DNA from: Escherichia phage vB_Eco-B1.1
Sequence record: ON871820
Length of the DNA stretch: 64,000 nucleotides
Reading direction: 5' to 3' (one strand)
Numbering within the stretch: position 1 is the stretch's first letter; every line of letters begins with the position of its first letter. A program made the translations under genes and the position numbers. Positions 5,645 through 9,799 of the stretch are shown here, one piece after another. The notes beneath the pieces are model-generated. The model did no database searches. It was not told the DNA's origin and saw only the letters and a program-made list of their open reading frames with translations.

Positions 5645-7738
5645 ATGGAACTTATTACAGAATTATTTGACGAAGATACTACTCTTCCGATTACAAACTT
5701 AAATCCAAAGAAGAAAATACCACAAATTTTTTCAGTTCACGTTGATGATGCAATTGAACAACCGGGCTTTCGTTTATGTACCTATACATCTGGAGGTGAT
5801 ACTAATCGCGATTTAAAAATGGGCGATAAAATGATGCATATTGTTCCTTTTACATTAACTGCTAAAGGTTCAATTGCCAAATTAAAAGGTCTTGGTCCAA
5901 GCCCAATTAATTATATCAATTCAGTTTTTACTGTTGCAATGCAAACAATGCGTCAGTATAAAATTGATGCCTGCATGCTTCGTATTCTTAAGTCTAAAAC
6001 CGCTGGTCAAGCTCGACAAATTCAAGTTATTGCTGATAGACTTATCCGTAGTCGTTCAGGTGGCAGATACGTCCTTCTTAAGGAACTCTGGGATTATGAT
6101 AAAAAGTATGCATATATTCTTATACATCGTAAAAATGTATCACTAGAAGACATTCCAGGAGTTCCAGAAATTAGCACTGAACTCTTTACTAAAGTTGAAT
6201 CGAAGGTCGGTGATGTTTATATCAATAAAGATACTGGAGCTCAAGTAACTAAAAATGAGGCAATTGCAGCATCTATTGCGCAAGAAAATGATAAACGTTC
6301 TGACCAAGCTGTAATCGTTAAAGTTAAAATTTCCCGTAGAGCAATTGCACAAAGTCAGTCATTGGAATCTTCTAGATTTGAAAGTGAATTATTCCAGAAG
6401 TATGAATCTACCGCAGCTAATTTCAATAAACCTGCTACTGCTCCTTTAATTCCCGAAGCAGAAGAAATGAAGCTTGGAATTAATTCATTAGCTTCTAAAA
6501 CTAAGGCAGCAAAAATTATTGCCGAAGGAACTGCGAATGAACTTCACTATGACTATAAATTCTTTCCAAAAAGTGAGGTTGATGAAGTTTCTGAAAAAAT
6601 TAAAGATGTAATTCTTAATGCGATCAAAAATGAACCAACTACTTCAATAAAATGTTTAGAGAAATACGCAGCAGCTGTCAATCAATTCTTTGAAGAATAT
6701 AAAGATAATTGGCTTGATAAACATAATAAAACTCGTAAAGGGCAGCCAGATGAAGTCTGGGAAGAAATAACTAAAAATTCCTGGAACGCAGCAAAAACTA
6801 AATTCCTCAAACGAATGATTTATAGCTTTTCTGGAATTGGTGCTGGTCCAATGATTGATATTACTATTGCCCGTGATGGTTCTAAATATACTCCATCACA
6901 AAAGCGCGGCATTAGAGAGTATTGTGGTTCAGGATATACAGACATTAATAATCTTCTTTTAGGTCGTTACAATCCAGAACGATATGATGTAATGAGTGAA
7001 AAAGAAATTGAATCTGCTATAAATAATTTAGATTCAGCTTTTGAAAATGGTGACCGCATACCGGAAGGCATTACAGTTTATCGTGCTCAAAGTATGACTG
7101 CTCCTATATACGAAGCATTAGTTAAAAATAAAGTGTTCTATTTCAGAAATTTTGTATCTACTTCTTTAACTCCTATCATTTTTGGACGTTTTGGAATTAC
7201 ACATGCTGGTATTGGTCTTTTAGAACCAGAAGCTCGCAATGAATTGACAGTTGATAAAAATGAAGAAGGAATAACTATTAATCCAAACGAAATAAGAGCG
7301 TATAAAGAAAATCCTGAATACGTTAAAGTTCAAATAGGATGGGCAATTGATGGAGCTTATAAAGTTAATGTTGTATATCCAGGAAGTCTCGGAATAGCAA
7401 CAGAAGCTGAAGTTATTCTACCGCGCGGACTGATGGTCAAAGTTAATAAAATAACTGATGCTTCTAATAATGACGGAACAACATCTAACAATACAAAACT
7501 CATTCAAGCTGAAGTTATGACCACAGAAGAACTCACCGAATCGGTAATCTATGACGGAGACTGTTTAATGGAAACCGGTGAAGTAGTTGCAATGACAGGT
7601 GATATTGAAATAGAAGACAGAGTTGACTTTGCATCATTTGTTTCATCAAACGTTAAACAGAAAGTAGAATCATCTCTTGGAATTATTGCGTCTTGCATAG
7701 ATATTACAAACATGCCTTACAAGTTCGTTCAAGGATAA
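5645..7738 (+). CDS. alt: Alt-family mono-ADP-ribosyltransferase (capsid-packaged RNAP-modifying enzyme)
   Basis: N-terminus MELITELFDEDTTLPITNL matches T4 Alt as I recall it; ART catalytic motifs YRAQ (R), FVSTSL (STS), TEAEVILPRG (ExE). Confidence 0.85.
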   Translation: MELITELFDEDTTLPITNLNPKKKIPQIFSVHVDDAIEQPGFRLCTYTSGGDTNRDLKMGDKMMHIVPFTLTAKGSIAKLKGLGPSPINYINSVFTVAMQTMRQYKIDACMLRILKSKTAGQARQIQVIADRLIRSRSGGRYVLLKELWDYDKKYAYILIHRKNVSLEDIPGVPEISTELFTKVESKVGDVYINKDTGAQVTKNEAIAASIAQENDKRSDQAVIVKVKISRRAIAQSQSLESSRFESELFQKYESTAANFNKPATAPLIPEAEEMKLGINSLASKTKAAKIIAEGTANELHYDYKFFPKSEVDEVSEKIKDVILNAIKNEPTTSIKCLEKYAAAVNQFFEEYKDNWLDKHNKTRKGQPDEVWEEITKNSWNAAKTKFLKRMIYSFSGIGAGPMIDITIARDGSKYTPSQKRGIREYCGSGYTDINNLLLGRYNPERYDVMSEKEIESAINNLDSAFENGDRIPEGITVYRAQSMTAPIYEALVKNKVFYFRNFVSTSLTPIIFGRFGITHAGIGLLEPEARNELTVDKNEEGITINPNEIRAYKENPEYVKVQIGWAIDGAYKVNVVYPGSLGIATEAEVILPRGLMVKVNKITDASNNDGTTSNNTKLIQAEVMTTEELTESVIYDGDCLMETGEVVAMTGDIEIEDRVDFASFVSSNVKQKVESSLGIIASCIDITNMPYKFVQG

Positions 7739-7741
7739 ATC

Positions 7742-9799
7742 ATGGAACTTATTACAGAATTATTTGACGGCGCTTCGGCGCCGGTTGTTAACTTAAATCC
7801 TAAGCATAAAATACCTCAAATTTTTGCTATTCAAGCCGGTGAAGAAAGTGTGCTTCCTGGATTTAGATTTTGTACATATACCTCTGGTGGTGATACAAAT
7901 AAAAACGTTAAGCCAGGCGATAAAATGATGCATATCGTAATGATAGGCGTCAACGAGAAATTATCGCTGGTTAAGCTTAGAAACTTGGGTGGAAATCCAA
8001 TTGGCGTCATTAATGCGGTTTTTGATACTGCTCTTCAAACAATGAAGCAGTATAAAATCGACGCATGCTTATTCCGCGTACTAAAAAGTAAAACAAATGG
8101 CGCTGCTCGTCAAATGCAAGTTATTGCTGACCGTTTAGTACGTACTAAAGGAGCAGGTCGATATGTTCTTTTAAAGGAAATCTGGGATTATGATAAAAAG
8201 TACGCATATATTATGGTTTACCGTAAAAATGCCAATTTAGAAAACATTCCAGGTGTACCTCCTATTTCAACTGAGTTATTCACAAAAGTTGAATCAAAGG
8301 TTGGTGATGTTTATGTAGATGTTAAAACCGGTAATGCTGTTCCTAAAGCTGTCGCTGTCGCTGCTTCTATTGCTTTAGAAAATGATAAGCGCACGGATCA
8401 AGCTGTTATTCAGAAAACTAAAATTAGTCGTCGATTAGCAGCACAAGCTCAATATTCTACTGTTGATGCTTCACTTCAGGGTGATAGCTTCGCTGCCAAG
8501 AAATATCAAGAGTTTGAATCTAAAGTTCCGGTATATAAAGCAGAAGGTCCAATGAACTCTGGGGTTATTCAGATTGGTTCAAACTTCGGCAAAGGAGCTA
8601 TCGGTGGTATGAGAAGTGCTTCTCGTTTTAAATCTAGCGATTATGAACTAGAAAGTTTCCGAAATCATATTGCATTAGCCCATGCGCGTTTACGTGATCC
8701 ATCTATCAAGTTGCAGAGCGATATAACATATCAAGGTTCTCAAGAATATTTAAAGAATAAAGAATTCTTTGATTATAAAACTGATAAAATTTTAAGTGAT
8801 CTTGCTGACATTAATATTTCTAATAGCTTTGATGTTATTAAGAAAATTATCAATGATTTAGTTAAAGGTTCTAAAGCTACGCCAGATGAAAAGACAGCTA
8901 TTATTCAATTTGTCATGAATGGCATTTATAAATTGATTAATGAATCTGCTGCCCAGGCATATGAATACGCAAGCATCGAAGTAACTCCAAAAGAACTGAC
9001 CCAGGCTGAGTCTGATGTGATTGAAGATTATTGTGCAGATTCATATGTTGAAATGAACTCGTTCCTTTTGGGTAAACCAGATTCTACCCGTGAAGAATAC
9101 ATGGAACGAGCTATTAAACACATCGAGACGCTGGATTCTGCCTTTGCCAAAGGATCAGTTCTTCCTCCAGGAACTACACTTTACCGTGGACAAGAAGTTA
9201 CCTTTAAAACTTTGCGTCATAACATTGAAAATAAAATGTTCTATTTCAAGAACTTCGTATCCACATCGCTTAAACCAAATATCTTCGGTGAGCATGGTAA
9301 AAACTATATGGCTCTAGATGATTCCGGCGCAGTATTTTCTGGTGAAGGAGAAGGTTCCGTTGATACAGAAGATTTGATGCATATGGGTAGTCATTCTACA
9401 TATGCTAATGAAGATGCTGAAACTAGCGTGGGTATGGTAATTAAAGGAGCTGAGCGAATCAAAGTTATCGTTCCAGGTCATTTATCAGGATTTCCATCAG
9501 AAGCTGAAGTTATTCTACCGCGTGGAATTTTACTGAAGATTAATAAAGTAAGTACGTACTTTATGAAAGAAACTGCTTATAACAAGTATCTAATCGAAGG
9601 TACAATCGTTCCTCCTTCTGAACAATTAGAAGAATCAGTATATGATGGCGACCATCTAATGGAAACTGGTGAAGTTCGTCCAATGGCTGGATTTAATCAA
9701 TTCCTTGTAGAAGAATCAAAAGAAGAGGAAAATGAAGTTTCTCAAATCTTAGCTTCTTTGGTTAACATCAACGGAATGTCTAAAAAGTTCAAAATGTAG
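7742..9799 (+). CDS. Alt-family ADP-ribosyltransferase paralog (685 aa)
   Basis: First ~230 aa closely parallel the upstream Alt; retains YRGQ, FVSTSL, SEAEVILPRG motifs; central region diverged. Confidence 0.8.
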   Translation: MELITELFDGASAPVVNLNPKHKIPQIFAIQAGEESVLPGFRFCTYTSGGDTNKNVKPGDKMMHIVMIGVNEKLSLVKLRNLGGNPIGVINAVFDTALQTMKQYKIDACLFRVLKSKTNGAARQMQVIADRLVRTKGAGRYVLLKEIWDYDKKYAYIMVYRKNANLENIPGVPPISTELFTKVESKVGDVYVDVKTGNAVPKAVAVAASIALENDKRTDQAVIQKTKISRRLAAQAQYSTVDASLQGDSFAAKKYQEFESKVPVYKAEGPMNSGVIQIGSNFGKGAIGGMRSASRFKSSDYELESFRNHIALAHARLRDPSIKLQSDITYQGSQEYLKNKEFFDYKTDKILSDLADINISNSFDVIKKIINDLVKGSKATPDEKTAIIQFVMNGIYKLINESAAQAYEYASIEVTPKELTQAESDVIEDYCADSYVEMNSFLLGKPDSTREEYMERAIKHIETLDSAFAKGSVLPPGTTLYRGQEVTFKTLRHNIENKMFYFKNFVSTSLKPNIFGEHGKNYMALDDSGAVFSGEGEGSVDTEDLMHMGSHSTYANEDAETSVGMVIKGAERIKVIVPGHLSGFPSEAEVILPRGILLKINKVSTYFMKETAYNKYLIEGTIVPPSEQLEESVYDGDHLMETGEVRPMAGFNQFLVEESKEEENEVSQILASLVNINGMSKKFKM

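Follow-up and report, generated by a model that had tools for sequence, protein, structure and literature searches.

Tandem Alt-type ADP-ribosyltransferases of a T2/T6-like phage: a probable pair of injected enzymes on a shared N-terminal module

The 64,000-nucleotide stretch of Escherichia phage vB_Eco-B1.1 that was analysed here (sequence record ON871820; the window) contains two adjacent open reading frames (ORFs) of 697 and 685 amino acids (aa), both on the + strand, 3 nt apart and each beginning with MELITELFD. We found that they encode two paralogous ADP-ribosyltransferases (ARTs) of the Alt family, the product of the phage T4 alt gene being its best known member. The first (alt) is named here as A1 and the second as A2. 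The two proteins are likely to be late-made, packaged in the head, trimmed by gp21, injected into the host and active there as arginine-specific mono-ARTs, and their targets are probably different. The gene structure, homology, motifs, selection, mosaicism, chimeras and distribution described below are shown by the sequences. Within this reading, we infer the late co-transcription of the pair, the packaging and processing of A2, the arginine specificity and the distinctness of the targets.

The relationship between A1 and A2 was ascertained by pairwise alignment. BLASTP aligned the two proteins over their full length with 40% identity (E 4e-156), indicating that the similarity is not due to chance. 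The N-terminal module (N-module; residues 1-237) was 67% identical and the helical region that follows (residues 238-415) 10%; the values for the ART domain and the C-terminal tail were 36% and 43%, respectively. This agrees with a preliminary description of this locus that had noted extensive identity over roughly the first 230 residues and strong divergence thereafter. The common start of both ORFs and the R / S-T-S / E-x-E signature (YRAQ in A1, with R480, and YRGQ in A2, with R482; FVSTSL and EAEVILPRG in both) were also found as that description gave them. The Pfam family PF03496 (ADPrib_exo_Tox), with a cut-off of 23.4 bits, was detected in A1 with 129.9 bits (E 1e-37) and in A2 with 73.1 bits (E 2.5e-20), and PHROG 802 matched the full length of both (E 4e-271 and E 1e-255, respectively). 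The residues R482, S507, S509, E587 and E589 (A2 numbering) were invariant in an alignment of 23 family sequences. Thus, A1 and A2 both have the catalytic residues of Alt-like ADP-ribosyltransferases. They also have the N-terminal T-even-type module, the name of which (PF26846, ‘Tevenvirinae_ADPRT’) was taken from the precomputed annotation of close A2 homologues. The BLASTP, PF03496 and motif results together confirmed that these are tandem Alt-family ARTs that have their N-terminal module in common, differ strongly in the core and retain the catalytic residues.

The AlphaFold model of A2 has a mean predicted local distance difference test (pLDDT) score of 72, the ART part being mostly at 70-90, and has four parts: the N-domain is alpha/beta, the helical region (~250-470) is modelled with confidence, the ART core (480-625) is rich in beta structure, and the tail (631-685) is disordered. 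The Foldseek comparison of this ART core with the PDB returned Vis, CPILE-a/BECa, CDTa, C3bot, C2-I and iota Ia (E 1e-7 to 1e-5; probability 1.0), with template modelling (TM) scores by target of 0.6-0.68 to Vis and C3bot, and a profile search of PDB sequences with A2 returned C3-like ART, BECa and Certhrax. A2 therefore has the ART fold and an NAD-binding core like those of the solved members of the R-S-E clade (C3/VIP2/iota-like). In ARTs of this clade, as established for C3 and iota-type enzymes, an E-x-E motif is the mark of arginine specificity and Q-x-E that of asparagine specificity. The residues leading into ExE read LGIATEAE in A1, LSGFPSEAE in A2 and LAPSNEME in T4 Alt. The MuF-fused type of head-packaged ART, known from the polyvalent-protein context of Iyer and Aravind, was considered and rejected, as the portal-associated MuF domain was not found N-terminal to the ART.

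As mapped by mass spectrometry of T4 heads, gp21 trims Alt by 6 residues (ITE-6) at one end and by 63 (LTE-619) at the other (PMC5694885), and about 40 copies are present per head (PMC5694885, PMC9026906). Gp21-type motifs were found at the T4-mapped positions of both proteins, which are ITE-6 and LTE-632 in A1 and ITE-6 and LEE-631 in A2. E6 and E631 were invariant in the 23-sequence family alignment, and a conserved SV(I)YDGD(H/C)LMETGE motif comes directly after LEE-631 in A2. Furthermore, [LI]xE is found at both termini of AltA and AltB of phage JS98, of Alt of Acinetobacter phage Konradin and of both copies in Aeromonas phage AS4. The predicted mature A2 would span residues 7-631 (69.2 kDa), and the removed tail would be acidic, with an isoelectric point (pI) of 4.6. 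These features are good indirect evidence, although not proof, that A2 may take the Alt route through the prohead.

The T4-type late promoter motif TATAAATA that precedes alt is the only one of its kind immediately 5' of the gene pair. It occurs 23 times in the window against 9.4 matches expected by chance, an excess that is expected of a T4-type late-gene region. The terminator scan found no terminator-like site on the + strand between 5610 and 10155, and a bidirectional terminator was found at 10155-10176. The late promoter motif, the absence of an intervening terminator and the 3-nt gap together suggest that a single late promoter serves alt and A2 as a co-transcribed pair. Similarly, the presence of AAGGA inside the end of alt and the spacing between the alt stop codon (7736-7738) and the A2 ATG at 7742 suggest that A2 is probably coupled to alt in translation. 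The hairpin AAAGGCCTTCGGGCCTTT 3' of alt.1, which the late promoter motif follows directly, is likely to reduce early transcription running on from gene 30 and alt.1. Of two in-frame ATGs in the first ORF, at 5642 and 5645 (698 and 697 aa), the one at 5645, also used in the preliminary description, was favoured because the Shine-Dalgarno spacing and the published T4 Alt numbering (ITE-6, LTE-619, 682 aa; PMC5694885) fit it. The only other TATAAATA nearby was seen inside alt (7018-7025) and could yield an A2-only late transcript. The preliminary description had put forward both proteins as capsid-packaged and injected, and this part of it gains indirect support from the single late promoter, the lack of a terminator between the genes, and the gp21 motifs and N-module kept in both.

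With T4 Alt, A1 has 70% identity and A2 41%. In T4, alt is followed directly by two short hypothetical ORFs, alt.-1 (61 aa) and alt.-2 (67 aa). They match residues 1-56 and 62-116 of A2, respectively, with 96% identity and are separated by a frameshift. The PHROG models of these ORFs (23015 and 15247) score A2 above A1. The paralogy of alt.-1 and alt.-2 to alt, and a full-length duplicate in phage 44RR, have been reported earlier (Nolan et al, 2006; PMC1524935). The stretch of A2 that is missing from T4 measures 1699 bp, which is not a multiple of three, and copies of the 9-nt direct repeat CTAAAAAGT lie exactly at its ends; the T4 remnant therefore arose by a microhomology deletion. The possibility that the second paralogue is a well-characterised T4 gene, which the preliminary description had allowed for, did not hold. 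What T4 contains is a dead remnant of A2, frameshifted and deleted, so that A2 does not count among the characterised genes of T4.

The distribution of A2 was monitored by nucleotide search. Bases 5400-10200 of the window matched 542 phage records, the best full-length matches being UFV13, teqhal, RB3, T6, T2 and RB32 with 97-98% identity. The A2-specific DNA (8150-9750) was found in 401 phage records at an identity of at least 93.8%, and about four-fifths of the Tequatrovirus records of the collection contain DNA specific to intact A2. The protein is nearly monomorphic: 396 records have at least 95% identity, and hardly any fall in the range of 60-90%. When A2 was compared with its RB32 counterpart, 50 synonymous and 8 non-synonymous differences were counted and the ratio of non-synonymous to synonymous rates (dN/dS) was 0.04; for A1, these counts were 40 and 7. 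A2 is under strong purifying selection.

The two proteins were compared with AltA and AltB of JS98 (Dhakavirus) in the N-module, helical region, ART domain and C-terminal tail, in this order. The identity was 43, 44, 58 and 60% for A2 and AltB; 47, 34, 60 and 51% for A1 and AltA; and 65, 15, 40 and 41% for AltA and AltB. In the three parts that follow the N-module, the sequences of A2 and AltB form one group, with 100% bootstrap support, and those of A1 and AltA another. The cross-genus identity of the ART is comparable to that of the neighbouring gp54 (65%), gp48 (61%) and alt.-3 (58%). Because the enzyme halves group by paralogue across genera, the duplication predates the split of Tequatrovirus and Dhakavirus, and these halves are old lineages orthologous to JS98 altA and altB. 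The N-modules group by genome instead, A1, T4 and A2 falling together with 96.5% bootstrap. Between the two N-modules of one genome the identity is 67% (A1-A2), 65% (AltA-AltB) or 56% (AS4 pair), and across genomes it is 37-47%. In AS4, which is the third tandem pair, the 56% of the N-module stands against 17% and 32% elsewhere. The duplication followed by divergence that had been proposed for these genes is therefore too simple, as the grouping of N-modules by genome points to later homogenisation and recombination and not to simple retention.

The likeness of the N-modules within a genome could come from gene conversion or recombination, from co-adaptation to a genome-specific head partner, or from both. 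Recent gene conversion as the sole cause of the shared N-terminus was rejected because the synonymous sites of the A1 and A2 N-modules are saturated (dS 1.40; dN 0.29). An older homogenisation is the best fit to the discordance of the domain trees. Two stretches are identical between the genes, the first 28 nt (5645-5672 and 7742-7769) and 25 nt at ExE (7401-7425 and 9498-9522). The other synonymous sites between the paralogues are saturated (dS ~1.1-1.4), and the identical tracts could reflect short conversion or constraint at the nucleotide level.

A1 is itself a mosaic when compared with T4 Alt. The dS and dN values were 0.14 and 0.002 for codons 1-245, 1.74 and 0.70 for codons 246-410, 1.22 and 0.30 for codons 411-600, and 0.27 and 0.06 for codons 601-697. 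The break lies near nucleotide 740 of the gene, and the diverged centre corresponds to 6380-7440 of the window. Two types of alt cassette co-circulate in Tequatrovirus, with about 290 records of A1 type (at least 95% identity) and about 210 of T4 type (about 70% identical). Two alt cassettes together with the near-monomorphic A2 indicate that at least three deeply diverged warheads are present on one chassis in the population.

Natural chimeras of the two genes were also found. In P0003, P0004, P0005 and P0006, an A1-type N-terminus changes to the A2 body near residue 55, 107, 190 and 222, respectively. The metagenomic contigs of P0003 and P0005 and the complete genome of the isolate ECML-134 have such a chimera as the single alt gene between alt.1 and alt.-3, and the analysis of informative sites gave clean single crossovers. 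An assembly artefact is unlikely to account for these genes, since the longest exact match between the paralogues is 28 nt and one contig was assembled at k=99; it is also disfavoured by ECML-134, an isolate with the same single-gene state and a clean crossover. The N-modules are thus exchangeable in viable phages and provide the homology by which one warhead gets deleted. Another state of the locus was seen in Krischvirus PHB13 (L011, 5553-6377), where a stand-alone 274-aa ART-only gene without the N-terminal module lies downstream of a full-length alt.

These observations suggest a course of events in which alt and A2 would be made late from the promoter at 5614, each product being built of a 6-residue propeptide, an N-module of about 230 residues, a paralogue-specific helical region of about 170 residues, an ART domain of the C3/VIP2/iota type with an R-S-ExE active site and an acidic C-terminal propeptide. 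After incorporation into the prohead core and gp21 cleavage at ITE-6 and, near residue 631, at L(T/E)E, both proteins would stay inside the head until they pass with the DNA into the cell, where they would mono-ADP-ribosylate arginines at the expense of host NAD+. The N-module would be the common delivery part, similar within a genome, and would serve as the recombination substrate for fusing, losing and exchanging warheads. The preliminary description had also suggested a target other than RNA polymerase alpha for the second copy. The paralogue-specific helical region and the differing substrate loops fit this suggestion and make different targets probable, and distinct host targets are the most likely outcome for enzyme halves that are old, separately conserved lineages; the target itself was addressed from sequence only. 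In a more specific account, which we regard as a serious possibility short of probable, A2 is a second injected ART with its own target, possibly a translation, stress or defence protein in place of RNA polymerase, that was overlooked because T4 lost it by the microhomology deletion, and the N-module is a genome-homogenised, recombination-prone chassis for swapping warheads.

Several observations weigh against this interpretation. Both the late promoter and the gp21 sites were recognised by motif match alone. In the virion proteome of SH7, a two-gene phage, only the upstream T4-type Alt was detected (2 peptides, 3% coverage; PMC5238451), and A2 was not seen in this sole proteome of a two-gene phage that was found. 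This negative is weak, as just 13 structural proteins were detected, and the SH7 data neither support nor rule out the packaging of A2; proteomic support for presence in virions covers T4 Alt and the upstream Alt of SH7 only. The T4-type deletion junction was found in 91 of 499 matching records, and these, together with the single-gene chimeras, tell that one copy can be lost. Furthermore, the saturated synonymous sites of the N-modules mean that any homogenisation is old, and part of the N-module similarity could be constraint by a shared partner and not gene conversion. The SH7 result has also been considered in favour of A2 acting in the producing cell, or as a component of the head core or of DNA packaging, and T4 alt mutants do package more DNA, which indicates that Alt-family proteins occupy head volume (PMC3012670). 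Such a non-injected role is nevertheless improbable, given the conserved N-module, the two gp21 motifs with their invariant glutamates, the predicted place of A2 in one late unit with alt, the A2 body on an A1 N-terminus as the sole Alt of ECML-134, and the small size of the SH7 data set.

If A2 were a redundant copy, it would be packaged and injected and would modify Arg265 of RNA polymerase alpha like Alt, adding dose or robustness. The same architecture, catalytic residues and arginine-type ExE motif in A1 and A2 are compatible with this, as is the dispensability of either gene in viable phages, T4 living without A2 and ECML-134 without the A1 body. We consider it unlikely because the enzyme halves have been separate since before the Tequatrovirus/Dhakavirus split and the ART domains and helical regions of orthologues are 58-60% and 34-44% identical, respectively, against only 36% and 10% between A1 and A2; the substrate-loop residues differ, and both genes have long been kept in about 400 genomes at dN/dS 0.04. 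The frequency of the deletion junction and the merely fragmentary second ART gene of Krischvirus PHB13 would agree with A2 being a dispensable relic on its way out, already lost by T4 and without significant function. This is hardly credible for an ORF that is intact in 401 records under the purifying selection noted above, with invariant catalytic residues and an orthologous intact copy in JS98. Two injected ARTs with probably different targets thus remain our preferred reading.

The N-module was also searched for beyond this locus. When 1.84 billion representative proteins were searched exhaustively without a profile, only 69 clusters matched; the match was always N-terminal and mostly in proteins of about 600-710 aa. 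PF03496 was present in 7 of the 10 distant members that were scanned; in one distant homologue, P0185 (541 aa), ART was not detected in the C-terminal 370 residues. The N-module is thus almost confined to proteins of Alt size, most of which have the ART domain. Deepening the alignment with the N-domain of an Acinetobacter phage as query gave no matches. Among predicted viral structures (BFVD), Alt homologues ranked first in a comparison with the N-module fold, and the next matches were at the start of large uncharacterised proteins of Erwinia, Dickeya, Vibrio and Agrobacterium myoviruses (9-17% identity; query TM 0.4-0.59), some of the matches carrying zeta-toxin or deaminase domains. From these models the N-module fold may be a wider delivery domain, which we take as a lead only.

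By DNA and gene comparison, the window belongs to a T2/T6/RB32-like Tequatrovirus. The gene order is gp30, alt.1, A1 (alt), A2 and alt.-3 followed by the convergent gp54 and gp48 (Table 1), and the order 30, alt.1, alt, second alt, alt.-3 and 54 is the same in T2, T6, RB3, RB32 and UFV13. The pair therefore occupies the locus of Alt-like ADP-ribosyltransferases, between gene 30/alt.1 and alt.-3/gene 54, with a candidate late promoter identified by motif. In RB32 the first gene is annotated as ‘alt’ and the second as ‘alt.-2 ... apparent insertion in alt.-2; similar to alt’, and RefSeq labels both genes of RB32, RB51, T2, T6 and others as ‘Alt-like RNA polymerase ADP-ribosyltransferase’. Among the neighbours, alt.1 matched PF24647 (‘Phage blade protein’; E 2e-29) and overlaps the ligase stop by 4 nt. 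The alt.-3 gene has its own T4-early-like promoter GTTTACA-17-TATAGT (9800-9828) that overlaps the A2 stop codon; in T4, mutants with a C-terminal extension of alt.-3 escape the CmdTAC defence system (bioRxiv 10.1101/2024.02.24.581662).

Table 1. Features of the two-gene alt locus (window coordinates, except for the chimeras in the last row).
Feature	Position	Strand	Remarks
DNA ligase gp30	3944-5407		
alt.1	5404-5592		62 aa; PF24647
Terminator-like hairpin AAAGGCCTTCGGGCCTTT, then ATTTT	5590-5609	+	3' of alt.1; terminator scan
T4-type late promoter motif TATAAATA	5614-5621	+	24 nt 5' of alt start; motif match
Shine-Dalgarno GAGAGG for alt	5634-5639	+	5 nt before ATG 5645
alt (A1)	5645-7738	+	697 aa + stop; positional orthologue of T4 alt, mosaic relative to it
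A1 N-terminal module	5645-6355	+	Residues 1-237, including propeptide MELITE; 67% identical to A2
A1 variable, mostly helical region	6356-6874	+	Residues 238-410; identity 33% to T4 Alt, 34% to JS98 AltA, 10% to A2
A1 ART domain	6875-7540	+	Residues 411-632; ends at gp21-type site LTE-632
A1 catalytic codons	R480 7082-7084; S505-T506-S507 7157-7165; E587-A-E589 7403-7411	+	
A1 acidic C-terminal propeptide (predicted)	7541-7735	+	65 residues, pI 4.05; counterpart of the 63-residue propeptide of T4 Alt
Shine-Dalgarno AAGGA for A2	7731-7735	+	Within end of alt
A2, second Alt paralogue	7742-9799	+	685 aa + stop; same as RB32 ‘alt.-2’, JS98 altB type
A2 N-terminal module	7742-8452	+	Residues 1-237, including propeptide MELITE
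A2 paralogue-specific helical region	8453-8986	+	Residues 238-415; identity 44% to JS98 AltB, 10-11% to A1 and T4 Alt
A2 ART domain	8987-9634	+	Residues 416-631; ends at gp21-type site LEE-631
A2 catalytic codons	R482 9185-9187; S507-T508-S509 9260-9268; E587-A-E589 9500-9508	+	
A2 acidic C-terminal tail	9635-9796	+	54 residues, pI 4.56, disordered in model; predicted propeptide
Stretch bounded by two 9-nt repeats, between which T4 lacks 1699 bp	8081-9788	+	9-nt direct repeats CTAAAAAGT at 8081-8089 and 9780-9788
alt.-3	9860-10150		96 aa; DUF5498
Single-gene chimeras, three crossover points	L006 (ECML-134) 1742-3802; L003 4001-6055; L004 4001-6061		Replace the two-gene arrangement

The gene pair as such is already known, being annotated in T2, T6, RB3, RB32, RB51 and hundreds of genomes, with its paralogy in the literature since 2006 (PMC1524935). 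In the literature searched, we found annotation-level mentions of the second paralogue and no functional study of it, and we saw no description of the domain-wise tree discordance, the natural chimeras, the C-terminal gp21 site of the paralogue or the 9-nt repeat deletion in T4. The knowledge of injected phage ARTs comes almost wholly from T4, which holds only the remnant of A2, and the T4-like coliphages employed in ecological and therapeutic work may for the most part bring in two different ART warheads at the moment of infection. If A2 has its own target, the early host takeover by T2/T6-type phages would differ from that of textbook T4. The conserved delivery module, the exchangeable cassettes and the chimeras suggest a natural route for swapping packaged effectors, and this modular layout is relevant to the engineering of T4-type capsids for protein delivery.

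Among known systems, T4 Alt (682 aa), a head-packaged and injected NAD+--arginine ADP-ribosyltransferase, is encoded in the same locus as A1. The two have the R-S-ExE motifs, two gp21-type motifs and a late promoter motif in common and are alike over the first 245 residues but for one substitution (N20Y), whereas residues 246-600 of A1 are a different, deeply diverged cassette (dS 1.2-1.7), the helical region being 33% and the ART domain 66% identical. That RNA polymerase alpha becomes ADP-ribosylated at Arg265 is known for T4 Alt only, according to reviews. A2 has the whole architecture in common with T4 Alt at the 41% identity given above, but it represents a separate paralogue lineage that has no intact T4 counterpart. 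The ‘alt.-2’ gene of RB32 and the second Alt-like gene of T2, T6, RB3 and RB51 are the same gene as A2, at the same position and with 97-99% protein identity; their annotation is by homology only. The tandem AltA and AltB genes of JS98 and IME08 (Dhakavirus) form the same two-gene locus and correspond to A1 and A2, respectively, outside the N-module; the JS98 N-modules group by genome, with 65% identity within JS98 against 42-47% to A1 and A2. The C3 exoenzymes, iota Ia, CDTa, C2-I, CPILE-a/BECa, VIP2, Vis and Certhrax share the catalytic fold and the R / STS / ExE residues, but are only 14-20% identical; Alt proteins have in addition the phage N-module, the helical region and the protease-removed termini, and their delivery is from a phage head and not by secretion. 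T4 ModA and ModB are phage ARTs of the same Alt/VIP2 clade (PMC5512222); unlike the Alt proteins, they are small, early-expressed, not packaged and without the N-module.

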